A stretch of 44,645 nucleotides of DNA from positions 1 through 44,645 of the forward strand of contig RBNJ01000066.1 in assembly GCA_003990765.1 (NCBI GenBank), given 5' to 3'. A program made the position numbers and the translations under genes. How positions within the stretch are numbered: position 1 is the stretch's first letter; every line of letters starts with the position of its first letter. The notes beneath the pieces were generated by a model. That model was not told the origin of the DNA, did no database searches, and saw only the letters and a program-made list of their open reading frames with translations. This stretch comes from Jimgerdemannia flammicorona (taxonomy: Eukaryota). Below are positions 212 through 37,090 of the stretch, piece by piece.

Positions 212-2148
212 TAGATGTCCTGTGATTATCTTCACTTTCTTCTCCAGAGTTTTCTTAAATATTATTAGCCTCAGTTATCTTTTATCCTTATTTCTTGATT
301 GTATCAGTAAGTCTATATCTTATTTACTATCTGAATATGAGTATTTTTACCAACTGGCCAAAGGTTGCATTGATCTTTTGTTGACTGAGATCTTTGAGGA
401 TATTATACTTGAATATCTTGGTCTTGTAAAGCTTCTTCTCTTTTTATCCTTTACTGGCTAGAGTAGTTCCTTGAATGATATCTTGAACAGCCTGTTCTAG
501 TTCTATATCTTGATCTATTTCACCTTGGCTTTCTGTAGCAGTTTTCATCTATTTTTCCACATAGTTCTTAGGTCACTCTAATGGTCTCTTATAGGGTTCC
601 TTTCAGATATCTTTCTTAGTAATCTATACTGGATATATCTCTCATTCTTCTTTATCTGATTCTCCAATCTCCTTGAAGATAATAGTGTTGGCCTATTCCT
701 TATTTCAAGTAGCATTACTTGACTGGGCCTTATATTTGGTTTTGCTTATACATTTATATAAGTAGTGGCCTTCTTCTTTACAAGTATAGTAGGTACTTCT
801 CTTCTCTCTTCTTGTTTGAGATAGCAGCAAACTTCTGAACTAGGCAGCAGTCTCTTACTCTAATTTCCTCTACCATATCTCCAAGATGGGTAGTTATTTT
901 AGCAAACTTCTTAGCAAGTTTCTCTATAGAGTCACTGTTCCTCTGCTGCTCAGTAGCTCTTAGCTGAGGTGTATTTCAATTGATCACTATAGTAGGGATC
1001 ATACTGATTGCCTTGAGTGCTTCAATTCTGACTCTAGTAACTCTTTCCATTATATAGTCTTGTGGATGTCTGGCTATTCAGTATTGCTGGGCAAAGGTGA
1101 CCTTTTGTACTAGATTCAGAACTATTAGTAATGAGCAGATGACCATGACTATCTCTGGGTAAACTCCTTTTATGAAGGTTGCTTTAGCTACTTGATCTTA
1201 GATAGTATCAGTATAATCAGTAAGAATTATCTAATATTGGATTCTAGTATAGAATGTATTTGAGTTCTTGCTCATTTCTTGGTATATTATATTGAGCTGA
1301 TTCTTCAGAACTTACTTAATCTCATCTGTATAGTAAGTGGTTAGAGCTAGGTCTTCTGTGCTGCTAGCATGGCATTATCATTATTTCCTATATAGGTTAT
1401 AGCTATAAATACTACTCTTACTGGTTCTTGGAGACTGAAGAGTATGAGGGCCACTTGCTGTCTTACTGTCAGGGTTCTTACAGCAGTATACTACTTGAAA
1501 TCATCAATGAATATAATGATTAATTCATCTGAAGTATATCTGTGGAATACTGGTGATCTCATATCTATCTTGTCTAGATATCTTGATTCAATTTATATGA
1601 TTGTTTAGATGATAGCAGTTGTTTATTATTTAGCTTGAAAGTGAGAGATGTATCTTAAATCACCAGTCAATGGGCACCAATTTGTAATGTAGCAAATATG
1701 TAACTGTATAAGGTATGTCAGATTTCTGTATCTTGAAAACTTAATCTTCTTTGACTCTATGTCCTCAGGATATAGGAGTGGTTGAGTTTGAAGTATATCT
1801 GCCTATAGGCTTACTAGTTTCTTTGCTTTCTCTTTACTTTGAATTATTTCAAACTGAGGTTTATTTACTCTAGATACTGGAGATATTTATACAAGTTTGC
1901 TAGCTATAAGGTAGTTAAGTTATGAGTCACTTTTTTTAAATATTAAATCCTTAACATCTGCTAAATCTTTGACAATTGCCAAAACTTTAATATCTGCAAG
2001 ATCTTTAATATTTGTGAAAACTTTAATATTTGTAAAATACTATGACTGCTATTTGTAAGGCTATACTATATTTGGGAATTAGATTCAGATACTACAATTA
2101 AATATTAATTCTCCTGATTTGTATTCCTAATTTAGATCAACCATCATA
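212..2148 (-). mobile_element. Truncated, degenerate Ty3/Gypsy LTR retrotransposon (copy A, same family as copy C): 5' LTR, PBS, gag; breaks off just before the protease core
   Basis: Reverse complement aligns by eye with 13891-15843 (LTR ends, TGGTGCCCATTG PBS at about 1667-1679, gag region); many stops from C>T/G>A changes; similarity ends near 212. Confidence 0.9.
1683..2148 (-). repeat. 5' LTR of copy A (about 466 bp), with internal ~18-bp tandem repeats at about 1950-2040
   Basis: Ends match the copy C LTR ends in reverse complement (tgtaatgtagca... at 1683; ...gatcaaccatcata at 2148). Confidence 0.85.
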
Positions 2149-2451
2149 ATACTAATAATACTAAAGAATCTTCTTTTTAAATAAATATATTCATAGATTA
2201 TATCAGTAAGTAATTTTTATTTTTATTTGACAGAAATCAGCTAAAAGTATTAATAAGTAGTCAATTTAAGCTGAAAAATAACTTATTTCTACTAATTTTT
2301 AATATTGATTATATTTATTCAAATAAGATTATAAAATATTATAATATAATATCATTATTTATATTTCTTATCAAGCTTCTAAAACTCATAGAGAATTAAA
2401 TTATTTATATATTATCACTTACATTTCTTAAAAATCTAATTATTTATATAC

Positions 2452-3995
2452 TGTAACAGTAATCTCAAAATGATGACATCAGTATAGGAGACAGCCTTTC
2501 CTCACAAGCCACCAGATCGGAGTACAAGGAGATCATACAGCATATGAGATGAGCAATAATGACCAACTGTGAGTCATTGTGACCACAGTACAAGCATCCT
2601 AAAGAATATAAAAGAAGGATCAAGGAACTACAGTAGTAGCAACCAATAAGAACCACCAATCCCAAAATAGCTCAAAGACTTACTATAAATGAAATGCCTG
2701 CTGCCTGCCAAACCTCAAGGTCAAGGAATTACCAAGGCATCTCAGTCGAGGAAAGGATGTTCTAAGACATCAGAAGAGCTATAAGGACCCACTCAAGAAG
2801 GACTCTTAGTATCAACCTGGGTACTGCAGATCTCTATCACTTTATCCTCTACCACTATGAAATGGAAACAAGGATCACCATTGCTACTGAATACCTCCAA
2901 ATGTGGCAGGAGTATGAAATAGAAAACCTCCTCTGCTGGGAGTTCTCACAGGCCAGCCCTCAAGAGCTACAAGATGCCACTCCTATGGATATATGCAAGA
3001 CAAGAATGGCTAAGAAGATCTATTAGATCTTCAGGCATACACTATGGTCGATCCCCAACTTGGAGTATGTTAGAGTTTCAGACTTCAGAGATCTGTTATC
3101 CTGCTGTATCAATGCACTAGAAGCCAGGGTGACTACAGAAGCCCAGTTCACTATCACCCTCAATAGTGATGAAGTAGAAGACTTCTGGTATCCCATCCTT
3201 CAGGACAACCCAGACCAATTCCTGCAAGGATTGATCTCAGTATTCCAAGGCCCAAGCATCCAGGTTAGACCTCTCTAAGATCTCACATTTGTTCCTTATT
3301 TTGTAGAAGAGAACCTCATAGATTGGAGAGCTTCCAATTTCCCTACCGAATGTGATGACATCATCAGCAATGATGTCATTCTGTGTGACATCGAAGTACA
3401 TGAAAATGATGAATTCATGGATCTCATCTCCTTCAGTGATGATGATGATGATGAAACCCCCATGGTCCTGAACTTTCTGCTCTAAGTTCTTTGTTATACT
3501 GAATAATACCAGTACCAGTATTTTGATGTAACACCAGATAATGTCAATACTGATATTCTGAGGTGATGCAAAATTGTTCCAGCACCAGTATTCTGATATA
3601 ATACTGAATTATACCAGTATTCTGAACCTATACAAACATCAGTATTCTGAACCTATACAAACATCAGTACTGACCCTGGAACTTAGTAGTTTTAGTTATT
3701 GGAATTTATATTTAGCTTTATATCTTAGCAACTATTGAATTATATTTTGTATAAATATTCCTCTTATTTCCTCTGAAATAAAGTCAGTTAAGTTTCAGTC
3801 AAGTTTACTTATACACAATCTCTTGCAAGCAATCTAAGAGATAACAAGACAGTTAAGATAAGAAGTTTGAGGACTATAAGACTTTAGGAAGGCACTCCAA
3901 TAAGAACTTGCTTATAACAATCTTGAGTTAGTCTAAGAGATACACCTTGAAGAGAATCTGGTATATTTGAAGAACTCAGTGACTACTATGTGACA
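2452..3995 (+). repeat. 5' LTR of copy B (1544 bp)
   Basis: Starts TGTAACAG, ends TGTGACA; colinear with 9676-11194; carries an extra ~25-bp tandem unit at about 3615-3665. Confidence 0.95.
2544..3485 (+). pseudogene. LTR-encoded accessory ORF (U3 region), about 310-340 codons, unknown function, acidic C-terminus
   Basis: One frame runs through the LTR (includes ORF-track 3060-3278); interruptions are TGA/TAA/TAG explainable as CGA/CAA/CAG; start codon uncertain (2544, 2559 or 2694). Confidence 0.75.
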
Positions 3996-3998
3996 ACT

Positions 3999-4016
3999 TA
4001 GTACCCATTGGCTGGT
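3999..4016 (+). promoter_or_regulatory. Primer-binding site of copy B (TAGTACCCATTGGCTGGT, eroded from TGGTGCCCATTGG...)
   Basis: Starts 3 nt after the LTR end; matches the PBS of copies A and C; priming tRNA not identified. Confidence 0.8.
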
Positions 4017-4115
4017 AATTCAAGATGAATTCCTCACTTTCAAGCTAAAAAATGAACAACCCCCATAACAACTACTCTGACTACAAGAGTCACCCCTGCA
4101 AGAATTCAAGACAAG

Positions 4116-7100
4116 ATGGAAATACATCCCCCCACATTCTATGGATATACTACTGAAGAGTCAATCCTGACCATCATTGAAGACTTTAAACAATTTGCCA
4201 CCATACAAGCCCTTAGTGTGGATGCTCAATTGGCCCTTCTACCAGTCAGCCTCAGAGGACCTGCCAGAGACAAGTTCAATACAGCCACTATTGCTAATGC
4301 TGGTATAGCCAAACTTGCCAACATGAAGGCCTTCCTCAGAACAACATATTATACTGAAGAGATCAAGCAAGCTCTCAAGGATCAACTTAATACTATCTGC
4401 CAGGGACTTAGTGAAGATTCCAACTCATTCTATATCTAAATCTGCTACCAGATTGTCCTAGCTGGCTATAATGATGCTCTCAAGGAACAAATAGTGGATT
4501 CAACCTTCCTCAAAGAAGTTCACCCTGAAATTGCCCTAGCAATCTGGTCTACCCCAGCTGTACTGACTTTTGATCAGAAAGTGGTCTTTGTATAGAGATA
4601 TTGGACTGCCAGACACCCTGCCAAACACTCAATGGAGAAAATAACTGGCATCAAGATAGAGCTATCAAAGCTATCTAGTATTATATCTGCTACAGTTGTA
4701 AACAGACAACTAACCCCATCTACTCCCAAGATAGCCAAAGCTGATCCAGTGGAGGAACTCGCCAAGCAGTTCGCTGAGATGACTATACACCTTGGTAATG
4801 TTATTAGAGAAGTCCAAAGCACCAACAGGAGATCAGTATAGAGATTTGCAGCTGCTACAGAAGAATACAATATCATATACTTCAGATATAGAGAAGAAGG
4901 CCACTATGCAAAGAATTGCATGACTGAAACAAGATGCAAAGCCCAACCAAGCAATGCTAGCAGAACCAGAGAACAAACAAATGCAGTAGTCATCAAGGAG
5001 ATTGGTGATACTGATGATGAAGAATACTATGAGGAGCTTGAATTCTACCCTACTACTAAAGGTACCAGAACCTGGTCTAAGCCCTATGACAAGAAGAGTA
5101 ACAGCAAACCAGTTGAAAGACTAAAGAAGACCCCAGCTGTCACTATTCAAAGCAAGACCCAACCCAAGGAGATTGATCAAGATATGGAGTTAGATGAAGC
5201 TGCCCACCAAATCATTGAAGGCACTACTCTAGTCTCAGGAGAAAGTGAAAGCAAGAAGGAACAGAAGCTGTACAAGACCAAGATCCACTAATATGATATC
5301 TATAAGGACCTCAAGGAACAGAAGGTCAATGCCACTTTTGGACAGCTAGCTGAAGTCTCTGCCTTCAGACAACAGTTGAGAGTAGGACTTGCAACTACTG
5401 TCAAGAATCAAGAGTATAAGATTGTAGAAGCTCACAATGTACAGGAAGAATCCAAGAACTCAGATGAAGAATCCAAAGACTAGTGCAAGACATCAGCCTA
5501 TATCTCATATCAGATTGAAGACTGTATTTTGATGCTATCATTAATACTGGTGCTGGAGGATGCCTCATGAGCAAGAAGGCAATTGACCACCTAGGCTGGG
5601 ACATTGAAGAGTCCACCAAGATAGTCTATGTCACAGCAGATAGTATATGAGCTACCCACCTTGGCAAAATCTGAGAAGTTCCCATCAAGATAGGAGGAGC
5701 TATTATTCCAGTAGATGTGATTATCACAAGTGCCACCAACTATGACATCCTCATTAGCAACCAATGGCTTCACAAGGCCAAGGCCATCATTGACCTCAAT
5801 GCCCAGAAGATGCAGATCAACTATAGAGGAAGAAAGGTATAAATCTCTATCAATGTTCATAAAGGAGTCCTACCAGATATGGAGGAAGGAGATGAAGAGG
5901 ACACAGAGGTCTTCATGCACTCAGTGAACAAGAACAAGAACAAGACACCCAAGCTCACAGATGAGCAGTGGTACAACAAGATCATTGATAGATATGTCCC
6001 TCAAGAAAGATGCCCCCATGATACTAGGATATACTGCTCTGAACACCTGAATGACTGCTGGTCCTATATCAGTGAAGTCAGAAAAATCTGCCAACAGAAA
6101 TATGAGCAAGAAGCCACTGAAGCAAAAAGGAAAGCTGAAGAAGATGACCAGTCCCCAGAGCTTTAGGCTGACAGTGATGATGAGGAGGAACAAGAATCAG
6201 ACATCACCCTCAAGGTCAAGAAGTTTCACCCTGAAGCCAAGATCCCAGAATACAAGACTGAAGGAGCCATAGAAATGGACCTTGCCAGCATTCAAGATGC
6301 TACCCTTGAACCACAGACCACCACTCTACTTGGCACTGGAATTGGAGTCAAGCTGCTAGAGAACCATGCTGGAATTATCAAGACCAGAAGCAGTCTGGCC
6401 AAAAGTGAAATCTCAGTTAAAGGAGGAGTAATTAATCCTGATTATACTGGCGAGATCTTTCTCATAGTCAGGAATCACAACCCCACCACCTCATTTGAAG
6501 TCAAGAAGTATGACAGAATTGGCCAGATGCTGATCCATGAAATCAAGAAACCCAAGATCATAGAAGCCACCGAACTCATCAAGATAAAGAGAGGAGAACA
6601 AGGCTTTGGATCTACTGGAAGAGGAGTCTATGTTACCACCAAGATTACCAAACTTGAGCACAAGGAAGACAAGGATCAGAACAAGCATATATACACTATT
6701 GGAGAAAACTTTCTCCTAAAAGAACAACTTCTCAAGATCCTACATCAGAATGAAGGAGAATTTGCTACAGACTTCTGGGATATCCACAATCAAAAACCCA
6801 AGTACTATCATGAAGTTGATACTGGTGACACCAAGCCCATCTACCAGAAAGCCAGACCCATACCACCTGCCTATAGAGAGTGGCTGCAAGCAGAACTCAA
6901 GAAAATGGAAGAAGCCAGAATCATCAAGCAAGCTATCAACCCCTGGGCCTCACCTATTGTTCTTGCCCCAAAGAAAGGAAGCAAGCCTGGTATTGACTAC
7001 AGAAAGCTCAATGCCATCATCAAGAAGGATAGGCAGCTCTTGCCAAATATCTAAGAAATCCTTACCACCCTTGGAAGCAAAGCCAAATACTATACCACCT

Positions 7101-9320
7101 TGGATCTGTTCTCAGGCTTCCATCAGATTGGTCTCACTCAAGATATCAGTGAGAAATCAGTCTTCATCATACCTGATTCCACCTATATCTATCTGCAAAT
7201 GCCATTTGGAATGTGCAACGCCCCAGTAAGTTTCCAGTAAATGATGAACAGAGTCTTTAGCAATGAGATTGGAAAATGGCTCTTTGTCTATGTTGATGAT
7301 GTGATCATCTTCAGCAATACTGCACAGGAATATGTCAATCACATACAGCTAGTCCTCAAGAAGCTCAAAGAGCATGGCCTCTACATCAAGCCCAAGAAAT
7401 GCAAGTTTGCAGTCCAGGAAATCACCTACCTAGGACACCTCATCAACCAGACCAGAATCTACACAGATCCCATGAAGATTGAGGCTGTTGCAGCCTACCC
7501 AAGACTCAGAACAACCACAGAAGTCCATGCCTTCCTTGGACTGATTAGCTATTATAGAAGATTCATCAAAAGATACTCCAATATTACAGTACCTATCTAT
7601 GAGCTACTGAAGAAGGAAACCAAATTCAAATAGACTAAGGAGTGCCAAGAAACTCTCAATGAACTCAAGACCAGGTTGACCCAAGCACCTATCCTCAGAA
7701 GACCAGACTGGAACCTAGAATTCATTCTGCAGACAAATGTGAGTACTATAGAACTTGGAGCAGTCCTAGCTCAGAAGAAAGATGGACATGAATATGTCAT
7801 CTCCTATATAAGCTAAGGTACCCATAGAATAGAACAGAACTATGAGTCATGCAAGCTTAAATGCTTAGCAGTAGTCTGGGCAGTAGATAAGTTCCACTAC
7901 TACCTAGTTGGAAAATACTTCACTATTCAAACAGACCACTTCACTCTTGCCTGGCTATTCCACACTCTGAACCCCAAAGAAATATATGCCAGATGGATCT
8001 ACAGGCTGCAAGAGTATGACTATACTGTCAAACACTGCTCAGGAAAGACCAATACCAATGCTGATGCACTCTTAAGGATACCCTGAAATACCCCATCAAG
8101 ACTATTCAATATGAATAAGGAGCTATACTATGGATTAATTAGCTATCTTGAGCAGTAGAAGATGCCTAACCACCTCAAACCCTGGACAATCACCATCATC
8201 AACTGGACTTGGAAACAGTTTGAATTAGATAATATGTACTACACTCAGAAAAGGAGGAAAGCTAGTAATATCTAAACATAAGAAGTATCAAGTAATGAAG
8301 GAAGTATATGAGCAAGGATACTTAGGAGGAACCAACACATATGACAAAGTAAGAAGAACCATATAGTGGCCCAAGATAGAAGAAGACCTGCACCAATTTG
8401 TCAAAGGGTGTGACAAGTGTCAAAAACAGAAATAAGATCAGCAAGACCAGACATCTGGGTCATCAAGAATTGAGCCTATCCCCTTCCACTATATTGCAAT
8501 GGATATCATTGGGCCACTACCAGTAACAATATCAGGAAACTGCTATATTATAGTTATTGTAGACCTCTTTACCAAAGGGATAGAGGCAGGAGCATTACAA
8601 GAAGTCAATATCCTCTCTATAGCTGACTTTCTATACCAAGAAATCATCTGCTGCTATAAGATACCAAAGCAAATCACAACAGACCATGGCATGGAATTTG
8701 CCAATAGATTTTATGAGATAATATATCAGAAATACAAGATCCAGTACATCAAGACCACTACGTATCACTCTCAAGAAAATGGACAGATAGAGAGAATCAA
8801 CAAGACCCTCAAGAATATTCTAGCAAAGATCTCAGAGATATATGAGAATTGGGATAACTATCTCCCAACTGCCCTCTCTGTCCTATGAGACATATGGTCA
8901 CAGAGCACACACTTTACCCCAAGGGAGCTGCTCTTTAGAGAAGAAGATTCTGATGGAACCTCAGCCACAAATCTAGACCTAACTTAGAGACAGGTTGATG
9001 CAGAAATCCAGAGACTACACCAAATCAGGAAGAAGGCTGAAGATTACATTATCAAGTTACAAGCACTGACAAGAAAGAATGCAGAAAAGAATAACAAGGC
9101 CCTAGAACCCATCCGAATTGGAGAAAAGGTTCTACTATATCAAAATATGGTAGAAGCCTCAATGTCATGAAAACTGGAGCCCAAATGGGAAGGACTCTTC
9201 TATGTACAAGATATCAAGAGAACCACCTTCTGGCTTAGAAAAATCTCAGAGACCATACTGCCTACTATGGTATATAGGAACAGACTCAAAAAGTACCACA
9301 AACCTATACAAGAGAAGTAA
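4116..9320 (+). pseudogene. gag-pol of copy B (Gag, aspartic protease, Cys/His module, dUTPase, RT, RNase H, integrase), disrupted
   Basis: Motifs: AII[N]TGAG (eroded DTG), PWASPIVL, IDYRKLN, YVDD, FLGL.SYYRRFI, ADAL, integrase MDIIGPLP/TDHG/GQIERIN, KLEPKWEG; many stops and frameshifts. Confidence 0.95.
6203..6619 (+). other. dUTPase domain within pol of copy B
   Basis: Trimeric dUTPase motifs: (A)IEMDL, RSSLA, GGVINPDYTGEI, DRIGQM, RGEQGFGSTG. Confidence 0.95.
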
Positions 9321-9665
9321 AATGTGATGACTGCCCATGAGGTTCTAGTCTACAAATCATAACAGCATGTCCCGTGACTAGCAGGCTATCTGTCTGGACC
9401 ATTCTCTAAGAGATATGGCACTGGTAACTACTCATTCATGAGACTTTCAAAGTCAGAGAAGTTTGAACCATCAACTGATTGGTCAAGATCAGAATCAGGC
9501 CCTTACTCTATATGAAGGGAGCAATCCTTCACCATCATGCCAAAATACAAAGGAAAGATGCCAGCCCATAAATACCACTTTTTGACCCCTTGCCAGAGGT
9601 TATGGGATCAGCAAATTTTTCAGGACTGGACCAATGAATAAGGATGCTTGAGAAGATCCTTATTC

Positions 9666-9675
9666 AGAAGGAAGA
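9666..9675 (+). promoter_or_regulatory. Polypurine tract of copy B
   Basis: AGAAGGAAGA immediately before the 3' LTR. Confidence 0.75.
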
Positions 9676-11194
9676 TATAACAGTGACCTCAGAATTATGA
9701 CATCAGTACAGGAGATAGCCTTTCCTCACAAGCTACTAGATCAGAGCACAAGGAGATCATATGATATATGAGATGAGCAATGATGACCAATTGTGAGTCA
9801 TTGTGACCACAGTACAAGTATCCTGAAGAATATAAAAGAAGGATCAAGAAACTGCAGTAGCAGCAACTAATAAGAACCACCAATCTCAAAATAGCTCAAA
9901 GACTTACCACAAATAAAATGCCTGCTATCTGCCAAACCTCAAGGTCAAGGAATCACCAAAGCATCTCAGTCGAGGAAAGGATGTTCTAAGACATCAGAAG
10001 AGCTATGAGGACTCACTCAAGAAGGACTCCTAGTGTCAATCTGGGTACTACAGATCCCTATCACTTTATTCTCTACTGCTGTGAAATGGAAACAAGGATT
10101 ACCATTACTACCAAATACCTCCAAATGTGGTAGGAGTATGAAATAGAAAACCTCCTCTACTGGGAGTTCCTACAGGCCAGCCCTCAAGAGTTACAAGATA
10201 CCACTTCTATGGATATATGCAAGACAAGAATGGCTAAGAAGATCTATCAGATCTTCAGGCATGCACCATGGTTGATCTCCAACTTAGAGTATATTAGAGT
10301 TTCAGATTTCAGAGACCAGTCATCCTACCATATCAATGCACTAGAAGCCAGGGTGGCTACAGAAGCCCAGTCCACTATCACCCTCAATACTGATGAAGTA
10401 GAAGACTTCTGGCATCCCATCCTTCAGGACAATCCAGACCAATTCTTGCAAGGATTGATCTCAGTATTCCAAGGCCCAAGCATCCAGGTTAGACCTCTCT
10501 AAGACCCCACATTTGTTCCTTATTTTGTGGAAGAGAATTTCATAGATTGGAGAGCCCCCAATTTCCCCACCAAATGTGATGACATCATCAGCAATAATGT
10601 CATCCCATGCAATATTAAAGTATATGAAAACAATGAATTCACAGATCTCATCTCTTTCAGTAATGACAATGATGATGAAGCCCCAATAGTTCTGAACTTT
10701 CTGCTCTAAGTTCTTTATTACACTGAATAATGCCAGCACCAGTATTTTGATGTAATACTAGATAATACCAGTACTGATATTCTGAGGTGACATGAAATTA
10801 TTCCAGTATCAGTATTCTGATGTGATACTGAATTATACCAATATCCTGAACCTGTACAAATATCAGTACCAATTCTGAAACTTAGTAGTTTTAGTTATTG
10901 GAATTTATATTTAGCTTTATATCTTAGCAACTATTGAATTATATTTTGTATAAATACCCCTCTTATTTCCTCTGAAATAAAGTCAGTCAAGTTTCAGTCA
11001 AGTTCACTTACATACAATCCCTTGCAAGCAATCTAAGAGATAATAAGACAGTTAAAATAAGAAGTTTGAGGACTATAAGACCTTGGAAAGGCACTCTAAT
11101 AAGAACTTGCTTATAACAAACTTGAGTTAGTCTAAGAGATACACCTTGAAGAGAATCTGGCATATTTGAAGGACTCAGTAACCACTATGTAACA
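9676..11194 (+). repeat. 3' LTR of copy B (1519 bp), containing the second copy of the accessory ORF (about 9768-10709)
   Basis: Colinear with 2452-3995; ORF-track 10209-10502 and 10527-10709 are in one frame. Confidence 0.95.
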
Positions 11195-12156
11195 ATACTA
11201 TTATTTATATTTTTCTAAAATTTAGAGAGAATCTAATTATTTAAATATATATAAGCTGTCAATTATTTATATAAAGTTTATTTTAATAAATATAATATAT
11301 AAATATACTTATAATCTTCTTAATTTAGATATATCTCTTCTTTGTTTCTAAATTTCTCTTATTTCTTCATTATAGTAGCCCAGTCAGCATTCAGTCACTG
11401 CTATATCTCTGATAAGCTAACTATACTAATTATTTCAAAAATATTATCATATTAGAATTTTTATAATAATTTCTTAAATTTGATTTTGATAATGACTATA
11501 TAAATCTAAAATAAATAAAATATGATTAGATCTATAATATATAAGTAAAAAATACTCTTATTATATAAACTTACTATAGTGATAGTAAATGCTGATATTC
11601 TTCTATTTAGCATTTTTAATTAATACAATTGAAATAAACTGAATAATATCTTTAATCTATGATATAGTTTATAATTGAGATATATAAAGACTAGTCAAAT
11701 AATCTCTTTAAATATTATATCAGTATTGATTCCATTAACTGTATAGTCCTTGAACTTGGCTTATTATATAACATTAAAGTTAAAGGTCTTGTTAATTAGA
11801 TCTGCTAGAAGGCTGAACTTAGAACTATATTTTTATAGGTAAAAAATATCTTATCAGAATCAAACATTAATTATTTATACTAGTAGTCCTTGTTGAGCTT
11901 ATAAATATTCTAAAGAGCAGAAGTGAGCTCAGAGATAAGTTCAGCATTAACAATATTAAGAGTCTGTCTCCTCATATTACTTGACTAATAGATGATTTAT
12001 AGATGAAAGATAATTAGAAAATATCAAATATATATAAAAGAGAAGAGTATATATAAGTTAATATATCTTCAAATATTTCACAATTTGATCCTTAGTAATC
12101 AATATATTAATATCAAAATCTATACTATTATATATATTTTTTTAAGATATCCTTCT

Positions 12157-12157
<1 letters not shown>

Positions 12158-12188
<31 letters not shown>

Positions 12189-12960
12189 GACTCTTAGCTC
12201 TGCAGATTTTTATTAGAAAAGAACCTAGACTATATAGACTAAAACCCTCTCCTACCTCTCTCTCTCTCTCAAATACTGTACTCTTATTAACTTAGACTTA
12301 TTATTATTCAGCAGCTCTACTATACTAGATGCAGTAGAGCTTAATGTAGTCTATATCTCATTCTATATACCATACTCTCCCTACTACTAGAGAGAAAATA
12401 ATAATATATCAACAACTGAAAACATATACCCAAAACTCCAATATATATATAAGACCATATAAGAGCTAGATAATAAAGTCTCTGCTATCTCAAATAGAAT
12501 AATAGGTAAAGAAAAACTCCTTTAAAAGATATAAAACAGTGGATAGTACTCAGAATAAATCAAATTAAATCAAATTTGCCTCTAATTTAATTTAATTTAA
12601 ATATTCAAATCAAATTGAGGTCCAATTTAATTTAAAGTCCAATTTGAATCTAATTTTTCAAAATTCAATAACTCAACCAAAATATATCTAAATTTAATAA
12701 ATTTTAGCTTATTTAATATATCTTATAATGAAGAATCTAATATAATAAATAATATTAAATTTGGACATATTTCTATAGAGTTATTATGTTTTAAATTTGG
12801 GATAAATATTTTAAATTGAATTAGACTCTAATTTAATTCAAATTCAATTTAAATAACTCTCAATTCAATTTAATTTGAATTAATTTAATTTATTTAAGAG
12901 AACTAATAGTGGATAGAATCTGGTTCTCTCTGATAAAGTAAGTAAAGGACTGACATATCC
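12158..12960 (-). mobile_element. Degenerate 5'-truncated copy of the poly(A)-tailed retroposon family, interrupted by a MITE
   Basis: Poly-T at 12158-12184 followed by the reverse complement of about 36655-37050 (gaacctagactatatag...aaaaccctctcc; cagtggatag...tggttctc...gtaaaggact). Confidence 0.8.
12544..12905. mobile_element. Non-autonomous hAT-like MITE (about 362 bp)
   Basis: Imperfect TIRs (TAGTACTC..AATAAATCAAATT / AATTTATTT..GAGAACTA), 8-bp TSD ACAGTGGA (12536-12543) and ATAGTGGA (12906-12913); the empty site ACAGTGGG is present in other copies of the host retroposon. Confidence 0.8.
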
Positions 12961-13890
12961 TTATACTTCTCTTTATTAAATTATATATTAATAATAATTA
13001 TATATTTAAGTAACTCAAGCTTAGTAGTGTACTCTTAATTAGAATATATATCTTTTAACTTTATTTCTTATTCTCTAAGAAGTTTTAAATAGTAAAGTAT
13101 TATAAGAGAATTTTGAGCTTAAATAATAAAAGATAAAGTTGTTAAATAATAGATATAATAGTAGATTTTATCTATTTTGAAATTTTGACTTATATATTAT
13201 ATAAGTATAGAGATATAATAATAAGTATAAGAGAGGTAAAAAGGGGGAATAAGAGTGAGAGAGGATATATTAAAGAACTATACTTTATATTATCAATGAG
13301 AATTACTTATATAATAATTAGTATATTGATTAATATATGTTGATAAATATATTAGTTAGTATATATTAATAAGCTTAGTATATATAGTTAGGATATATAT
13401 TGATATATAAATAGCTTATATATATATATACTAGTATATATTAGCTAGTATTATATATTAATAAATTATTGATCATATATATAGCTAGTATATATTAGCC
13501 AGCATATACCAGTATATATTAATAAGCTTTCAGTATATGATATATATAATTAGTATATATTTGAGTTATTAATAATAAGCTCAATACAATATATATACTA
13601 AGTCTCTTGAGCTTAAATTATATTATTAACTAGTTATATTGAACTTCTTAATAGGTCTTAAGCTTCTTAAATTATTATGGATTATTACTTAATATAGTAG
13701 TAATTGGAAATTAGTATATTTTAACCTTTTAAGCTATAGTTATATATATAGTATTTATATATATATCTGTTGAATTCTATAAATTTCTCCATATAATAAA
13801 CTTATAAAGATATATATTATAATATAAAGATATAACTGAATGTTGTACTTTTTTTTTTTTTACTTTTATAGTAAATAATATAATTACTAT

Positions 13891-14374
13891 TGTGATGGTT
13901 GATCCAAATTAGTAATATGAAACAGGGGAATCAGACATTTGATCATGGTACCTGAACCCAATCCCCGATATAGTATAGCCTTATAAATAGCAGTTATATT
14001 TCACAAGTATAGAAACTTTAGCAACCGTAGAAATTCTACAGATGTAAAATATTTCATGATTGTAAAGATCTTAACAAATATAGAGGATTTACACTTGTAG
14101 AAATTGACTCACAGGAAATGTAGTCATAATTTAGCCACCTTATAGCTAACAAAACTATATAAATAACCCAGTATCTTCAAGTAAATAAACCTCAGATCGA
14201 AATAGTTCAAAGCAAAGAGATAGCAAAGGAACTAGTAAGCCTGTAGGCAGATACACTTTGAACTCACCCACTCTCCCCTGCAACTTCAAGAGACTCTGCG
14301 AGAGTCAGAACAGTCAAGTTTTCAAGATACAGAAATCCGACATACTTCCAAGAGTAAGCATCTGCTACATTACA
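13891..14374 (+). repeat. 5' LTR of copy C
   Basis: Direct repeat of 20147-20630; about 22 differences counted by eye; internal ~17-18-bp degenerate tandem repeats at about 14010-14105. Confidence 0.95.
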
Positions 14375-14377
14375 ACT

Positions 14378-14395
14378 TGGTGCCCATTGGCTGAT
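14378..14395 (+). promoter_or_regulatory. Primer-binding site of copy C (TGGTGCCCATTGGCTGAT)
   Basis: TGG start (complement of tRNA CCA) 3 nt after the LTR. Confidence 0.85.
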
Positions 14396-14488
14396 GATTC
14401 AAGATGAATCCCTCACTTTCAAGCTGAACAATGAACAACTGCCACCACCTGAACAACCATACAAACTGAGCCCCAATACCTAGACAAG

Positions 14489-17400
14489 ATGGATATGAGA
14501 CCACTAGTATTCCTTAGATATACCTAATATAAATCGATCATCACCTTCATTGATGATTTTGAGCAGTATGCCACTGTAAGGACCCTGACAGCAGCACAGC
14601 AAGTAGCCCTCATGCCCTTCAGCCTACGAGGTCCTGCCAGAGCAGTATTCACAGCCATAACCCATGTAGGAAATAATACTGATGCTATACTGATAGCATA
14701 GAAGACCTGGCTCTGAAATACATATTACACAGACAAGATCAAGCAAGCCCTGAAGAATCAGCTCAATACAATATGTCAAGGAATGAGTGAGGACCCAAAC
14801 ACATTCTATACCAGAATTCGATATCAGATAATTCTTGTAGATTATGCTGCTGCTATCCAAGATCAAATAGTCGAAGCAACCTTCATGAAAGGAGTGTATC
14901 CAGAAATAGCCATGGCCATCCACTCATCACCAGTGATTCTGGATCTGCCGCAGAAGGTCACCTATGCTCAGCGATACTAGATAGCCAGACATCCACAAGA
15001 CCATACAATAGAAAGGGTCACAGGAGTCAGAATCGAGGCACCCAAGGCAACCAGCGTGATCCCTACCACAATGATCAATCAGAACACACCTCAGCCAAAA
15101 GCTACAGAGCAGCAAAAGAACAGTGACCCTATGGAGGAACTTGCCAAAAGGTTTGCCAAAATGACTACCCACCTGGGAGATGTGGTAAAGGAAATTCAAG
15201 GAAGAGACTGCTGCCCCATCCAGAAGTTCGCCACCACTGCAGACAAGAAGAAAGGCACCTGCTATACTTGTGGAGAAGAAGGCCACTACTCTTATAAATG
15301 CATGAGGGAAACCAAACACAAGGCTCAACCAAGTAATGCCACATGAAACAAGGAGCAGGCCAATATAATTACCTTCGAGGAGATTGGAGATTCTGATGAA
15401 GAAGAATGGGAGGCCTACCCAGCTCAGACCACCAAGAAGGATGCTCACAAAGAACCCTACAAGAGACCACCAGGAAGACCCAAGAAGAACCCAGTGGAAA
15501 AGCAGATGGAAACTGCTACAGAAAGCCAAGCCGAAGAGATAGACCAAGATACAGAGCTGGAGCAAGCAGTTCAAGATATCATCCGAGAAACCACTCCAGC
15601 CAGCAAAGGAGAAAAAGAAAAGAAGCTTCACAAGACCAAGACCTTCAAGTATGATATCTTCAAGGACCTCAGCCAACAAAAAGTCAATGCAACCTTTGGT
15701 CAGCTTGCAGAAATCCCAACATTCAGACAGCAAATGAGGTTCAGACTTGTCGAAACAACTAAGGAACAAGGATGGAAGATAACTGAGGCCAATAATGCTC
15801 AAGAGAACTCAGAAGAAGAAAGTGAGGACAACTGCAAAACCTCTGCATATGCAACATGCCAAATCGAGGATAGAATCTTTGAGGCCATTATTGATACAGG
15901 AGCAGGAGGATGTCTCCTCAGCAAGAAGGCAGCAGACTGCCTAGGTTGGGATGTAGAAGAAGCAACTAAGCTGGTGTTTGTCACAGCTGATGGTACAAGA
16001 GCCACACCTCTGGGAAAGATCCAAGATGTTCCCATCAAGATTAGAGGAGCAACCATCTCAGTAGATGTAATCGTAACCAATGCCACCAACTATGACATCC
16101 TCATTGGCAATCAATAGCTTCACAAAGCCAAGGCAGTAATCGATCTCAATGCTCAGAAGATGCAGATCACCTACCGGGGACAGAAGATACGAATTTCCAT
16201 CAATGTTAACAAAGGAGTCCTGCCTGACATGGAGGAAGAAGAGAACGAGCAAGAGGAAGCTTATATGGTAACTACTCCAAAGAAGAAGAAAGTCGGATGG
16301 ATGAGTGAAGAAGAATGGTGTAAGAAGATCGCAGAAGGCTATGCACTACAAGGAGTCTGTCCTCACAGTATCAAGATGTACTGCATGGAGTATATCAATG
16401 ATTGCTACCAGTGCACCATTGGAATCAGGAAGATCCACCAGGAAAGAAGGCAGAAAGCTCTCGAAAAACAGATCAGGGAAGAAAAGAAGGAGGAAGATGA
16501 TGAACCACTAGCCCTTCTGGAGGACAGTGATAATGAAGAAGAAATCAAGGTCAAGATTCGAAAGATCCACCCTGATGCAGTCTTGCCAGAATACAAGTCA
16601 GAAAATGCAGCAGGAATGGACATCGCTACAGTAGAAGAGGCCATACTGGAACCCCAGACAACTACCCTACTTGCAACCAGATTGGAGATGACCATCCCAA
16701 AGGATCATGTCGGGATTCTCAAGACAAGAAGCAGCCTGGCTAGAAGTGAAATTACAATTGAAGGAGGAGTCATCGATTCAGACTACATTGGAGAAATTCT
16801 ACTCATCGCTAGAAATCACAATCCTACAATCCCATTTCCAGTCAAGAAGAAGGACTGATTGGTACAAATGTTGATCTTTCCAATCCTACAACCAAAAATC
16901 ATGGAAGTTAAGAAGCTGGAGGAAACAAGGAGAGGAAAGAAAGGATTTGGATCCACAAGAAGAGGAGTATTCGCTAACATCAAGATCACCGAACTTGAGC
17001 ATAAGAAGGAGAAAAACACAAGCAAGCACAGCTACACCATCGGAAATGAATTTCCACTCAAGAAAGAACTCAAGAAAATACTCCATGAATTCGAGGACAT
17101 CCTTGCCACAGATTTCAAGGACATCAAAGGAAAGACCCCACACTACTATTATGAAGTAGACACTGGAGACATCGAACTAATTTATCAGAAGGCAAGACCC
17201 ATCCTGCCAGCCTACAGAGAATGGCTCAGAGAAGAAATCAAGCAGATGGAAGAAGCCAGCATCATTAAAGAAGTAAGCAGCCCCTGGTCCTCACCTGTTA
17301 TACTAGCCCCGAAAAAAGGTAGCAAGCCTGGAGAATTCACCCCAAGACTCTGTGTTGACTACAGAAAGCTCAACATGGTTACCAAGAAGGATTGCCAACC

Positions 17401-19663
17401 ACTGCCCCTCATCAATGACATCCTCATAACACTAGGAGATGAAGCACAGTACTACAGCACCTTGGACTTATACTCAGGATTCCACCAAATCGGACTCACA
17501 GACATGGCAAGTGAAAAGTCAGCTTTCATCACTCCAGACAGAACCTACATCTACCTATGAATGCCATTTGGAATATGCAATGCACCAGCAAGCTTCCAGT
17601 GAATGATGAACAAAATCTTCTGCTATGACATGGGAAGATGGATGATAGTCTACGTCGATGATGTAATCATCTATAGTAAGACACCTGAGGAACATCTGCA
17701 GCACATATAGCAGATAATGGAGAGACTAAGACAACATGGCCTTTACATCAAACCCAAGAAGTGCAAGTTCGCAGAAATCGAGATCTCGTATCTTGGCCAC
17801 ATCATCAACCGAGATGGAACACACATGGACCCCCTCAAGATACAAGCAGTGGCAGCATACCCAAGACCCACCACTGTTACAGAAGCCCAAGCCTTCATGG
17901 GACTCACCTCCTATTATTGTAGATTTATTAGAGGATTTTCTAATATTGTGGGACTAATCTATGAACTTAACAAGAAGGATACCAAGTTCCAGTGGACTGG
18001 CAGACAACAAGCATTTGACGAATTCAAGGTCAGACTGACCCAGGCACCTATCCTCAGAAGACCTGACTGGACTCAAGAATTCATCCTACAGACTGATGCA
18101 AGCGCACAAGGACTAGAAGCAGTTCTAGCTCAAAAGAAAGACAAAGTAGAGTATGTCATAGCATACCTCAGCTGCGGAACCCAAGGAGCTGAGAAAGAAT
18201 ACGAATCCTACAAGTTGGAATGCCTTGCAGTCATCTGGGCCATAGAAAAGTTCCACTACTACTTGGCTGGAAGATACTTCACCATCCAAATGGACCACTC
18301 AGCTCTCACCTAGCTACTGACAACTGGACAACCCAAAGAAATCTATGCCAGATGGATAATGAAGTTGCAAGCTTATGACATAACCATCGTACATTGCTCT
18401 GGAAGAACTAATACCAATGCAGATGCTCTCTCATGGACACCCCAAAGGACCCCACCCCCACAAAATCGCCATGAATAAGGAGCTCTACTATAGAATTATC
18501 ACATATCTGGGACAGTGAAAAATGCCCCAACATCTGGAAGAATGGACACAAACGATTATCAACAGAACATGGAAACAATTCGAAACCGATGGAGAAACAC
18601 TAAAGAAAGGAAAACTACTAGTCATACCAGAACACAAGAAGGAGCAAGCAATGAAATCAGTACATGAACTTGGCCATCTAGGAGGAACGAATACATACGA
18701 TAAGGCAAGAAGAACAATATGGTGGCCAGGGATGGAGGAAGATATCAGACAATTTGTCAAGACCTGCGATAAATGCCAGAAACAGAAACAAGATCAATGA
18801 AATCAAGCCCCAGGATCAGCACATATAGAACCAGTACCATTTGCCCACATTGTAATGGATGTAATTAGCCCTCTACCCTTGACTTTGACTGGCAACTGGT
18901 ACATAATTGTCATCATAGACCTCTTTACAAAATGGATAGAAGCAGGACCCCTTATGGAAGCCAATGTACAGTCAATTGCTGATTTCTTCCACAAGGAAAT
19001 TATCTGCTGGTTCAAGACCCCAACACAAGTAACTACAGATAGAGGAACCAAATTCATGAACCAGTTCTCTATAAGAAGTACAAGATTCAGTATATTTGGA
19101 CTACAGCATATCATCCTCAAGGAAATGGATAAGTAGAAAGGACCAACAAAATCCTCAAGAACATTATTGCCAAGATCTGCAATAACTACGAGAACTGGGA
19201 TCACTATCTGCTAATAGCATTATCTGCTCTCCAAGATATCCAATCACAAAGTACCCACTTTACTCCTCGAGAAATGCTGTTTGGAGAAGAATGTTCTCAG
19301 AGAACTCTGTCATCCAATGGAGATGCTATATGGAAACATGTGGACATGGAAATATGGAGACTACACCAAATCAGGAAGAAGGCTGAGGATTACATAATGA
19401 AGGTGCAGACACTACAACGGAGGAATGTGGAAAAGACCCACAAATCCTTGGAGATTATCAAAATAGGAGACAAAGTCCTAGTATATCGGAATATGGTAGA
19501 AGCTTCATGGTCACGAAAATTGGAGCCCAAGTGAGAAGGACCTTACCTTGTACAAGATATAAAAGAGACCACCTTTTGGCTACGAAAAACCTCAGGCACA
19601 ATCATCCCCACTACCATCCACTGAAACAGACTCAAGAAATACCATGACCAGCTAACAAAGTAA
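14489..19663 (+). pseudogene. gag-pol of copy C, disrupted by stops
   Basis: CCHC knuckle CYTCGEEGHYSYKC, protease IIDTGAG, dUTPase, RT (LCVDYRKLN, YVDD), RNase H (LQTDAS), integrase HHCC (HELGHLGG..CDKC), DDE core, KLEPK.EGPY; no chromodomain seen. Confidence 0.95.
16544..16960 (+). other. dUTPase domain within pol of copy C
   Basis: AAGMDI, RSSLA, GGVIDSDYIGEI, D.LVQM, RGKKGFGST. Confidence 0.95.
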
Positions 19664-20105
19664 TGCAGCTACCCTCAAGATCACTAGTGCTGCCCAACAA
19701 GCCATAGAGAGACAGTAGTATTCCACCGAACCACCAACAATGGAGGAATCCTTTGATAGTATACAGAGTATAGTCCAGACTCACCTGTTATGAATTTCGC
19801 ACTTCAAGGCCTACCAGATGTGAACCGAGTTCCAGGAGTACTTCAAGCTAAGACAACTACTGAATTCAAATCCGCAGATGGGAAAAGAAGACTGGATCAA
19901 AGAATGCCAGCTCACCTACACTCAGATCACAATTGCCAAGAGAGTGCACAAATTATTTAAAGATGATGAACCAGCTTTAGCTCATCTCTGAGAAGTAATT
20001 CTAAGGGATTTTGGACAAATCAGGAGACAACATTGGAAGAATGTAATGGTACAGATTACACAGTACAAGAAGATACAAATTGTAGAAGCCTGGGAGTTTG
20101 AGTGA
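19644..20105 (+). pseudogene. Accessory ORF (~150 aa) between integrase and PPT, homologous to the LTR ORF of copy B
   Basis: ATG overlaps the integrase end; the frame reads MEESFDSIQ...QEYFKLRQLL...IAKRVHKLFKDD...RDFGQI; stops are C>T-derivable. Confidence 0.75.
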
Positions 20106-20146
20106 ATAGGATACTTCAGAGATGAATCACCTATTTAGGAGGAAGT

Positions 20147-20630
20147 TGTGATAGTTGATCCGAATTAGTAATATGAAACAGGGGAATCAGACATTTGATC
20201 ATGGTACCTGAACCCAATCCCCAATATAGTATAGCCTTATAAATAGCAGTTATATTTTACAAGTGTAGAAACTTTAGCAACCGTAGAAATTCTACAGATG
20301 TAAAATATTTCATGATTGTAAAGATCTTAACAAATGTAGAGGATTTACACTTGTAGAAATTGACTCACAGGAAACGTAGTCATAATTTAGCCACCTTATA
20401 GCTAGTAACACTGTATAAATAACCCAGTATCTTCGAGTGAATAAACCTTAGATCGAAATAGTTCAAAGCAAAGAGATAGCAAAGGAACTAGTAAGCCTGC
20501 AGGCAGATACACTTTGAACACACCCACTCTTCCCTGCAACTTCAAGAGACTCTGCAAGAGTCAGAACAGTCAAGTTTTCAAGATACAGAAATCCGACGTA
20601 CTTCTAAGAGTAAGCATCCGCTACGTTACA
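20147..20630 (+). repeat. 3' LTR of copy C
   Basis: Direct repeat of 13891-14374. Confidence 0.95.
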
Positions 20631-31500: not shown

Positions 31501-32967
31501 GTAATGTAGGTAATGCTTAATTAATAATCAAGCAGCTACACCCACCTTCACAGCACCTGAATGATGTTATAGCTGACGCCACGCTAATCCCAAAAATAGA
31601 ATTTCACGTGATTTGCATTTTTCACAACTGGTTTGTGTCGTGTGTGGGCTGGCCGATTGCCACCAGCTCCGGCGTCCACTCTTGTACGTCACTAGACATA
31701 ATACAGTGAAGTTTTGGAGGGATTACGTAGATTGGCGGTTAATTAGGACGATCATTCGTCCCCTTGGTGTTAGTTACTAAGATATAATGCAGCGCCTAGC
31801 AGCGGGGGAGAGGTACGGTGACCTGGCAGCTGTCGTGGGGAAGGGGGTTCTGTTGATGTGGGAGATAGGGTCCGAGATTCTGATGTGCGGAGAGGGCTGG
31901 GCGGAGGTTCTGCGATGTATGGGGAGTGAAGATAACAAGGAGTGGCTGGAGCATGTCCTGAGAAATTCAGTAGTTGTGCTGAATCTGTGGCCTTGCAACT
32001 GTTCTATTTTTTATTTATTTTATTTTATTTTATTTGTTTTTGCCTACCGTCAAAGCATTAGCTCGCATTAAATTTTAAAGTCCATAATAAAACTTTTTGT
32101 CTCACGCTTTCGTTGCAAACATTTTCAACCCCTGACAATTCGTGTAATTATGCTTACGAATAGCAATCTTTCAAGGTTCGTCGATGTCTGCAGGATAGCA
32201 TAGCCCCTACCCCCTCCGATCGTTTTGTGCCACACAAGAGATATTAACTATTGATTCCATGGAGGAGCCTAGCAACGGATGCTAGAAGATGTAACTGCAC
32301 AGCCCCTTTATTTTTTGTGGAGAATAACGTGGTGCAACAGTACTTGCGCTGCCATTAAGTGATGATCGGCAGGGACATTGATCAACAATGGATAGCGGAA
32401 ATCGGGACAGTGGTACAGATGACGAGAATGACGAGTAAGTTGAAGGACAGGAAAAATGGTGCTAGTGGCTAATTGGTGGTTTTTTGCTGATGCGCGAGAT
32501 ACAACTTTCATATATAATTAGATTCAGGAACAAAATCGGTGCTAGCCTTCGATGCGGGAAGGATAGGAAGCCACTGTGATCCAATACGGATAATCTTTGA
32601 CATTTGCGGACCTGGTGTCTCGGCCATTTGACATCCTTGATCGCTAATGCGAATTTGACATTTCATTATTTCAGTTAACAGAAACTAAAAAAATCCCAAA
32701 TTCGAGCAAACAGGAACGCGATGCGATCATAGGATAAATAAATGCAATGCAATATAATATTGATTAGGTCCGGACCTTAAAAAATAGGGGGTTGTAAGCC
32801 ATTTTGCCCAACATGTTTGGCATCTGAAATTTTGAAATATCGTTTCAAGCCACAGAGTTACAATGTGATATCGATCAGAATGGCTTGTACAACATTTTTG
32901 ACTAGGTGAGCATAAAAGACCCATACCCGTTTGTTTCAACACTCTCATTATCGATTGTTCATACACA

Positions 32968-34108
32968 ATGAAACTCACCACATTCATCCTCGCCCTCGCT
33001 ATCTATGGCCTCTTCATAGCGACAGCGACAGACGCGGCCAAACCCAAGTACAAGTACAAGAAGCCCGTGCCGAGAAATGGGACGGACGTCTACCAGGGCA
33101 GCTCGTTCTTCGACAAATTCGACTTCTTCACGGCTTCCGATCCGACTGACGGGTTCGTCAGATACGTCAATGCGGACACCGCGCGCTCGAATAATCTCAC
33201 GTTTGTGAAGAACGATACCATCTACGTCTACTCGGATCACACAAATATCGCTCCCAAAGGCCGCATGAGCGTTCGCCTAAGCTCCAAGTCGAAGTACAAC
33301 AGTGGCCTCTTCATCTTCGATATCCTCCACATGCCCACCGGATGTGGCACATGGCCAGGTTTGTGTTATTTTGGTTATGTTGCGAGATTTCCGCTGTCGA
33401 ACTTGAATGAAGCTGATACGACGTCCCATCACGCCTTCCCAAACCAGCCGTCTGGACGTTCGGCGACGACTGGCCGAACAACGGCGAAATTGATATCGTT
33501 GAGGGCGTGAACAACCAAGCTAAGAATGCGATGACGCTGCACACGAACGCTGGCTGCACGATGAAAATGGTGGAGCTGCGCGAGTCGGGGACAATGGTCA
33601 ACGCCAACTGCGACGTCGGGAAATCGGACCAGGGCTGCAGCGTGACGGACAAGCGCACGAGCTCGTACGGCACCAGATTCAACGAAAATGAGGGCGGCGT
33701 ATTCGCCGTCAGGTGGTCGAGCTCCGGCATCCAGGTCTGGTTCTTCCCCAGGAATAGCATCCCCCAGGACATCATTGACGGCACCCCGAAGCCCACGTCC
33801 TGGTCCCTGCCTAGTGCTGACTTCCCATTCAAGAGCTGCACACCGTCGTATTTCAGGGGCCATCGGATAGTGGTCGATAACACGTTCTGCGGTGGTAGGT
33901 GGTGTTCTCTTATCTGATTCGTCGACATATCCAGCCCTTGAATAATCGAACTTGACGTGGTTTTCTTCCATCTTCAGATTGGGCCGGTGACACCTTCAGT
34001 GAAATGTGCCCTGGGAAGGGCAGCTGTGCCAACTATGTGAAGAATAATCCCCATGCTTTCAAGGAAGCGTACTGGGCCTTCAGGTCATTCAAGGTTTACA
34101 AGGTGTAA
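32968..34108 (+). CDS. Secreted fungal GH16 endo-1,3(4)-beta-glucanase (Lam16A-like), 3 exons (about 32968-33358, 33448-33894, 33978-34108)
   Basis: Signal peptide, FFDKFDFFTASDPTDGFVRYV, HMPTGCGTWP|AVW, WPNNGEIDIVEGVN, NTFCG|DWAG, FKEAYW; canonical introns, intact frame. Confidence 0.93.

Positions 34109-37047: not shown

Positions 37048-37090
<43 letters not shown>
35878..37090 (+). mobile_element. 5'-truncated poly(A)-tailed non-LTR retroposon copy (G/T-rich 3' region)
   Basis: Colinear with 43525-44645; AATAAA at 37022-37027; poly(A) 37051-37090. Confidence 0.85.

Follow-up and report, generated by a model that had tools for sequence, protein, structure and literature searches.

An orphan gene inside the long terminal repeats of a decayed Gypsy-type retrotransposon

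Each of the two long terminal repeats (LTRs) of a decayed Gypsy-type retrotransposon, here called element B, carries a 263-codon gene for an orphan protein. This is probably an accessory gene of the clade to which the element belongs, and in the lineage of element B it appears to reside in U3. Little is understood of the accessory genes of LTR retrotransposons, which excerpts of the literature place in the internal region. With a conserved orphan gene wholly in the LTR, the LTR would be a carrier of coding sequence too, beyond its role as a promoter and terminator module. Such coding capacity would be doubled in every element and kept by solo LTRs. The window (the whole stretch of 44,645 nucleotides that was analysed) offers a natural comparison: a homologue of the gene is found inside the LTR in element B and outside the LTR in its sister, element A. 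LTR-borne genes are known from MMTV, and the comparison allows their origin to be tested in a simpler element. What appears to be new is an accessory ORF of an LTR retrotransposon that has been relocated into U3, as post-pol accessory ORFs themselves were already known.

Results

The carrier element

Comparison of the window with itself gave three long direct-repeat pairs, one of which (2454-3996 / 9678-11195, 89.0% identity over 1543 columns) delimits element B. The ends of these repeats, the target-site duplication, the purine run, the PBS-like leader and the order of the interior domains (Table 1) show that they are genuine LTRs of an element of the Gypsy type. Between them, coding sequence for a CCHC gag is followed by that for protease, dUTPase (about 6233-6619), RT, RNase H and integrase, and the Pfam matches come in the order RVP_2, dUTPase, RVT_1, RT_RNaseH, Integrase_H2C2 and rve. 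The Pfam search found no chromodomain in the gag-pol of element B, and no pol relative was found to be more than 43% identical. Element B is a Ty3/Gypsy-type LTR retrotransposon that is old and dead, and its 3' LTR lacks one 25-nt repeat unit that is present in the 5' LTR.

Within the window, element B is represented by just these two LTR copies, with no further copies or solo LTRs. Searches of the window for tRNA genes and Rfam families found none, nor were Pfam domains found in the 28 ORFs of the region from 20.6 to 35.9 kb. The third long repeat pair (35882-36999 / 43529-44645) is without an open frame.

Table 1. Features of elements B and A in the window
Feature	Position	Strand	Remarks
Target-site duplication ATAC, element B	2448-2451 and 11195-11198		4 bp, read directly
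5' LTR, element B	2452-3995	+	1544 nt, TG..CA ends; 89.0% identical to 9676-11194
TATA-like TATAAAAG	2607-2614; 3' copy 9831-9838	+	identical in both LTRs; consensus match only
LTR ORF, 5' copy	2694-3485	+	263 codons plus stop; pseudogene; database-only profile match 343 bits
Repeat array, (T/C)ACCAGTATT(C/T)TGA-type, ACCAGTATTCTGA-like	3513-3664	+	between ORF stop and downstream TATA
TATAAATA + AATAAA module, 5' LTR	3750-3757 and 3777-3782	+	module and spacing also in element A LTR
PBS-like leader, element B	3996-4020	+	abuts 5' LTR; homologous to element A leader at 14375
Decayed gag-pol, element B	4056-9320	+	Pfam matches; 24 in-frame stops (TAA, TAG, TGA)
Polypurine tract (PPT) AGAAGGAAGA	9666-9675	+	abuts 3' LTR of element B
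3' LTR, element B	9676-11194	+	1519 nt; first dinucleotide now TA
LTR ORF, 3' copy	9918-10709	+	263 codons plus stop; pseudogene; database-only profile match 348.8 bits
TATAAATA + AATAAA module, 3' LTR	10949-10956 and 10976-10981	+	copy of the 5' LTR module
Element A, related dUTPase Gypsy element	13891-20630	+	484-nt LTRs 13891-14374 and 20147-20630; TSD CTAT
Element A homologue, N-terminal half	19635-20072	+	profile positions 8-152; decayed, diverged; between pol stop and PPT

The reading frame in the LTRs

The initial annotation had described one reading frame in each of the two 1.5-kb LTRs of element B, and the 89.0% identical repeats indeed hold a single open frame. Between 2757 and 3482 this frame contains 3 stops in 242 codons, compared with 9 and 23 in the other frames of the plus strand and 8, 11 and 28 on the minus strand. 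Dinucleotide shuffles had 15.0 +/- 3.5 stops on average, and any plus-strand frame with three stops or fewer appeared in only 1 of 2000 shuffles. The two copies of the ORF, both 792 nt long, are not separated by any indel. A profile made from 13 database proteins alone aligned its positions 1-279 with 2694-3482 and with 9918-10706, each in a single frame. Stops occupy 3 of the 263 codons in each copy (1.1%), a density like that of the element's own genes (gag 7/515, pol 12/900, integrase 5/356, or 1.3-1.4%), whereas the same-frame flanks within the LTR are stopped at 6 of 80 codons upstream of the ATG and at 14 of 170 and 12 of 161 codons downstream (7.5-8.2%). The start methionine, the span of the profile match and the stop densities thus speak for a gene of 263 codons that is intact to the same extent as the other genes of the element.

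In element B this gene lies wholly inside the LTR. Its ATG follows the LTR start by 242 nt, and the frame does not extend upstream across the boundary between PPT and LTR, with 4 stops in 119 same-frame codons before the LTR and 6 in the 80 codons from the LTR start to the ATG. The length of 310-340 codons originally given was an overestimate, since the profile and the start methionine delimit a coding part of 263 codons; the additional 50 codons upstream (2544-2693) are non-coding and belong to the LTR stretch in which stops are as dense as in the flank. The acidic stretch DLISFSDDDDDE, which had been taken for the end of the protein, is present, but the protein ends nine residues later, with ..VLNFLL.

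It is very improbable that the frame is open by chance in a compositionally biased LTR and that there is no gene. Equally open frames are rare in shuffled sequence (1 of 2000), both copies match the profile of the 13 independent database proteins over its full length with 343 and 349 bits, and stops are as frequent as in gag and pol, all of which outweighs the facts that the sequence is AT-rich and decayed by transitions and that the 50 codons claimed upstream turned out to be non-coding. The data support a genuine protein-coding gene, and the LTR anatomy together with both profile matches bears out the earlier view that it is present once per LTR of a bona fide Gypsy-type element.

Decay of the gene

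Transitions account for 145 of the 150 differences between the LTRs. Among these differences, 39 of 86 C/T sites precede A and 41 of 59 G/A sites follow T, and CpG has been nearly lost from the LTRs, with one conserved CpG. In ascomycetes, repeat-induced point mutation leaves a bias from CpA to TpA as its signature. When changes in the ORF were polarised against close relatives, 26 of 29 were C>T or G>A; they affect 14 codons in each LTR, and 7 more codons could not be polarised. Decay of the gene by C-to-T and G-to-A transitions is as advanced as that of gag and pol. Differences between the two ORF copies are distributed 32/18/27 over the three codon positions, with 24 synonymous and 46 non-synonymous codons, a pattern that is as expected from neutral decay after insertion and is uninformative on earlier selection.

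The in-frame stops are located at 2763-2765, 3024-3026 and 3276-3278 in the 5' copy and at 9987-9989, 10131-10133 and 10500-10502 (codons 24, 72 and 195) in the 3' copy. The suggestion that they are derivable by C>T holds for all four distinct stops, which fall on codons that are glutamine in the other LTR copy or in intact relatives. An alternative code, in which TAA and TAG would stand for glutamine, was rejected because the stops differ between the LTR copies; the disruption of gag-pol by TAA, TAG and TGA also speaks against it.

Two of the three stops in each ORF copy are common to both LTRs. Eighteen stop-prone codons are intact in both copies, two are stopped in one and two are stopped in both; under independence, 0.06 codons would be expected to be stopped in both, or roughly half a codon with higher per-site rates. 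At 21 further residues, both copies differ from the close relatives. As two thirds of the stops are shared, the ORF may have been broken already before element B inserted. The shared stops may stem from a source copy that was already broken, from sequence exchange between the LTRs, or from hot spots. If the ORF was dead before insertion, this would show that it is not needed in cis.

An orphan protein family

A word-indexed search detected 5 relatives and a profile-seeded search 11, and the union of all searches comprises 13 distinct proteins of 87-342 residues. They are 25-86% identical to the ORF and form four subfamilies, with pairwise identities of 21-87% overall, 61-87% within and 21-55% between subfamilies. 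Five relatives extend to the N-terminus, and all of them start with the same methionine (MP(A/P)..), equivalent to window position 2694. The C-terminal LN(F/I).. motif is reached by seven relatives, five of which stop exactly where the ORF in the window stops. Some database members are truncated or frame-shifted (P0026, P0027). Frames that are open at 25-50% protein identity suggest constraint, with the proviso that databases list open frames only.

The product of the ORF belongs to an orphan protein family. An exhaustive profile search of 1.84 billion protein representatives returned 5 matches, all of them members of the ORF family; among these representatives no cellular homologue outside transposons turned up, though the contexts of the family matches are not visible. 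A Pfam search with the two copies in the window gave no family at E up to 1, one with 11 members gave two chance-level families, and no PDB sequence matched the ORF protein at E up to 10. No relative was found in PHROGs, where one match had an E of 0.093, or in the ESM Atlas, where all matches stayed below the lead threshold (best feature score 0.83, TM <=0.33) and where the Atlas's own model of P0004 has a pLDDT of 0.35. In 185,579 prokaryotic genomes, 199 pattern matches were obtained, none of which was confirmed as a family member. Kinship with gag was considered and discarded (hhalign probability 0.09%).

The product would be a soluble protein. Among full-length close relatives, the N-terminus is basic, the centre is conserved and the C-terminal third is strongly acidic. 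The first 60 residues of P0004 have a net charge of +8, and in most members the last third has a net charge of about -14 to -20 around the conserved motifs DLISF and LNFLL. Judged by this composition, a nuclear regulatory or adaptor protein is the favoured but tentative possibility. The basic N-terminus could then serve in nuclear or nucleic-acid targeting, and the acidic tail, studded with hydrophobic residues, could be an activation or recruitment module whose target is the LTR of the element itself or host silencing.

An Env-like or Sag-like membrane protein for cell-to-cell spread or surface signalling would have its gene in a fitting place, as env-like additional ORFs are situated downstream of pol (excerpts of PMC7264820) and the MMTV Sag gene also lies in U3 (excerpts of PMC9412291). 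The protein itself, however, makes such a function highly improbable: a hydrophobic segment that could span a membrane is absent from 6 of 6 proteins (highest 19-residue hydropathy 1.07), their overall pI is 4.2-5.9, and there is no Pfam match whatever.

A homologue outside the LTR in element A

The interior of element A is 71-78% identical to that of element B and has the same domain order, dUTPase included. In the LTRs of element A, neither the ORF nor a homologue of the family was found. A decayed and diverged homologue of the N-terminal half of the ORF is present between the pol stop and the PPT. It scored 19.7 bits, where the best of 2000 shuffles reached 9.3 and the reversed sequence 1.9; the E was 4e-7 in a search of 6 sequences. 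With the profile from database proteins only, the score was 11.1 bits, and the next best in the six-frame translated window was -6.2. The hhalign comparison was collinear over 112 columns, at a probability of only 25.6%. A further A-like fragment occupies 232-2163, on the minus strand.

The homologue in element A suggests that the gene family belongs to this element clade and that it occupies two positions relative to the PPT. Since the copy of element A is outside the LTR, residence in the LTR would be a variant position of a post-pol accessory gene and not a fixed trait of the family; element B is the one element for which this residence is shown. The location of the homologue between pol and PPT further relates the gene to the post-pol accessory ORFs, a known class.

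The 40 nt that end in the PPT are homologous in the two elements (score 31, shuffles 20.8 +/- 2.5, 2 of 1000 as high), so the LTR boundary looks orthologous. An origin of the long LTR by a PPT shift, with plus-strand priming moved upstream of a former ORF3, is not supported in view of this homology. A likeness between 9321-9675 of element B and the post-pol region of element A (0 of 500 shuffles) vanished when the PPT-proximal 40 nt were left out (271, 273 and 88 of 500), and the similarity between the U3 of element A and the part of the U3 of element B that follows the ORF was not significant (36 and 185 of 500 shuffles).

These comparisons also bear on the alternative that the ORF is a passenger, i.e. 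a fragment of a host gene or of another element that was captured in U3 and amplified with the LTR, without a role and without selection. The U3 of element B is about 1030 nt longer than that of element A, and the two share the PPT-proximal 40 nt and the part from the TATA box to the end, which looks like an insertion; the two stops common to both LTRs would fit as well, as transposition may have continued with a broken ORF. Yet terminal inverted or direct repeats around the ORF are absent, for which reason a nested transposon carrying the ORF was also rejected. No cellular relative and no relative in other elements was found, the 5 representatives among 1.84 billion all being members of the ORF family. 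Even at identities as low as 25-30%, the four subfamilies agree in start and blocks and often also in the end, and a homologue is found in element A at a different position. A passenger is therefore unlikely, and an accessory gene of the element clade remains our preferred reading.

Position within the LTR

The ORF lies upstream of the TATAAATA motif, with 265 nt from the end of the ORF to the motif. The alignment of elements A and B from this TATA box to the end of the LTR and into the PBS was matched in quality by 5 of 500 shuffles, and we infer that TATAAATA and AATAAA form the promoter and poly(A) module of the element. As the ORF is followed, after 265 nt, by a TATA/AATAAA module that element B has in common with the short LTR of element A, it would lie in U3, as the initial annotation had proposed. 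The repeat array between the ORF and this module may be enhancer-like, and the TATAAAAG motif, 80 nt before the ATG of the ORF, is a candidate U3-internal promoter.

If the genomic RNA started at TATAAAAG (2607) instead, the ORF would be part of R, and it would be the first cistron before gag as well as being present at the 3' end. That the TATA box 80 nt before the ATG has been kept in both LTRs is in line with such a start, as is the observation that the ATG of the ORF is the first ATG after TATAAAAG in the 3' copy. However, the downstream TATAAATA-AATAAA arrangement, spacing included, is also found in the 484-nt LTR of element A, which has no ORF, and an R of more than 1.1 kb that bypasses the poly(A) signal of its own 5' LTR would be unusual. 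We consider a location in R quite unlikely.

With the gene in U3, each genomic RNA would include it after pol, at the 3' end, from where it would reach both ends of the element by reverse transcription. Expression would most likely take one of two routes: a short transcript that begins at TATAAAAG and is terminated by the poly(A) signal of the LTR itself, or a subgenomic RNA of the element. The former would resemble the U3 promoter P2 that drives the LTR ORF of MMTV. A further step would be to regard the LTR as a self-contained cassette of TATAAAAG at 2607, an orphan regulator of 263 amino acids and its own poly(A) signal, which we find doubtful. If it were true, every LTR, solo LTRs included, would be an independent expression unit and would spread a transposon-encoded nuclear factor through the genome, either a transactivator of the LTR or an antagonist of host silencing. 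It would then be a non-retroviral counterpart of MMTV sag/naf that arose via a post-pol gene relocated into U3.

Discussion

According to excerpts of PMC9412291, MMTV has its sag/naf gene wholly in U3, downstream of the U3-internal promoter P2, and also encodes a dUTPase, which supports the MMTV LTR ORF as the closest architectural analogue, as had been suggested at the outset. In both cases, a gene of about 0.8-1 kb lies wholly in U3 (by inference in element B) and is present at both ends. Element B has a TATA-like TATAAAAG upstream of its ORF, a candidate by consensus match, and a dUTPase is found in both. Sag is a membrane glycoprotein, whereas the protein of element B has no membrane segment, no Pfam match and no sequence homology to the retroviral superantigen. 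On these grounds, the ORF is not a member of the Sag family. The carrier differs too, being a Gypsy-type retrotransposon without env and not a betaretrovirus.

Elements of plants, fungi and rotifers have an accepted class of sense additional ORFs (aORFs) that follow pol, and excerpts of the papers concerned describe aORFs in the internal region only (PMC7264820, PMC6431247, PMC5408684, PMC2864245). The gene of element B resembles the aORF-3S of plant Athila and Bagy2 and the ORF3s of bdelloid rotifers in being sense, post-pol and family-specific (excerpts of PMC7264820, PMC6431247, PMC5408684): its 3' copy starts 598 nt after the pol stop (9318-9320), on the same plus strand as gag-pol. The homologue in element A sits exactly at the internal position of an aORF-3S, upstream of the PPT. 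Unlike an aORF-3S, the gene of element B is downstream of the PPT, inside the LTR, and hence duplicated; and unlike env-like aORFs, it encodes a protein without a transmembrane domain. Conservation of the aORF type may extend over 13 database proteins in four subfamilies, whose contexts are not visible, and the two elements of the window.

Accessory proteins that are orphans and are suspected of a nuclear role have been described in excerpts of PMC7264820 for gene23 of maize Grande, which has its own promoter, and for brtn of Botrytis Boty. The ORF protein of element B is similarly an orphan for which composition tentatively suggests a nuclear role. Its gene is sense and in the LTR, in contrast to gene23 and brtn, which are antisense and internal. 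Gypsy elements with a dUTPase include PosPlaTy3-5 and the rotifer elements Juno and Vesta (excerpts of PMC2864245, PMC5408684, PMC6431247). Element B has its dUTPase between protease and RT, like the dUTPase Gypsy elements of basidiomycetes, Tuber, rotifers and planarians, but its best pol relative found is no more than 43% identical, and a chromodomain was not detected.

A literature search for LTR-located ORFs in retrotransposons, with most subscription journals outside its scope, gave retroviral cases only (MMTV and others). The nef gene of HIV/SIV and bel2/bet of foamy viruses overlap the start of U3; they begin upstream of the PPT and run into U3. The accessory gene of element B is like them in using U3 sequence at the 3' end of the genome and unlike them in starting 242 nt inside the LTR and lying wholly within it. 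Since pipelines that mask LTRs would hide such genes, their annotation calls for caution.

Decay of element B and its surroundings

Decay is strand-asymmetric between the two LTRs (2452-3995 and 9676-11194) of element B, the decayed Gypsy-type retrotransposon. Differences of C/T preceding C are many in this pair (23 differing vs 52 conserved), and the complementary class, G/A following G, is not frequent (5 differing vs 35 conserved). The sole sizeable indel separating the LTRs is a tandem duplication of a 25-nt unit, CAGTATTCTGAACCTATACAAACAT, of which the 5' LTR carries two exact copies at 3615-3664; the duplication is absent from the 3' LTR (compared region 10720-10845). The PBS-like sequence of B (TAGTACCC, 3996-4015) differs from that of the related element A (TGGTGCCC, 14375-14394) at G-to-A sites, and since it does so the putative primer-binding site of B has itself decayed.

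Both Gypsy elements carry a dUTPase domain, and no chromodomain was found downstream of the integrase in either. Because the LTR start of a minus-strand A-like element is just 290 nt away from element B, the two belong to a cluster of transposons. The block separating B and A (11200-13890) has a G+C content of only 20-23% and is possibly an older repeat with heavy transition decay. A marginal Pfam match to HTH_Tnp_Mu_2 in the post-pol region of element A (19662-19820), which scored 21.8 bits at E 2e-4 with none of its stretches passing individually, is probably due to chance.

Features located in the window
Feature	Positions	Strand	Remarks
Truncated A-like element	232-2163	-	5' LTR and part of gag; 77% identical to 13876-15825
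dUTPase domain, element B	6233-6619		flanked by protease and RT; Pfam E 6e-25
dUTPase domain, element A	about 16580-16960		flanked by protease and RT; Pfam E 2e-25
Third long direct-repeat pair	35882-36999 and 43529-44645		86% identical; cut by window end
piggyBac-like transposase fragment	41128-41652	-	Pfam DDE_Tnp_1_7, E 1.4e-19

Other features

The stretch 32900-34500 is G+C-rich (49-55%). Overlapping ORFs, 166-220 codons long, occur there on each strand and had no Pfam match; the stretch may be a host gene or another repeat. The third repeat pair holds no open frame, and the piggyBac-like fragment sits between its two copies. Downstream of the first copy come an AATAAA motif and a run of ~40 A (roughly 37040-37085).
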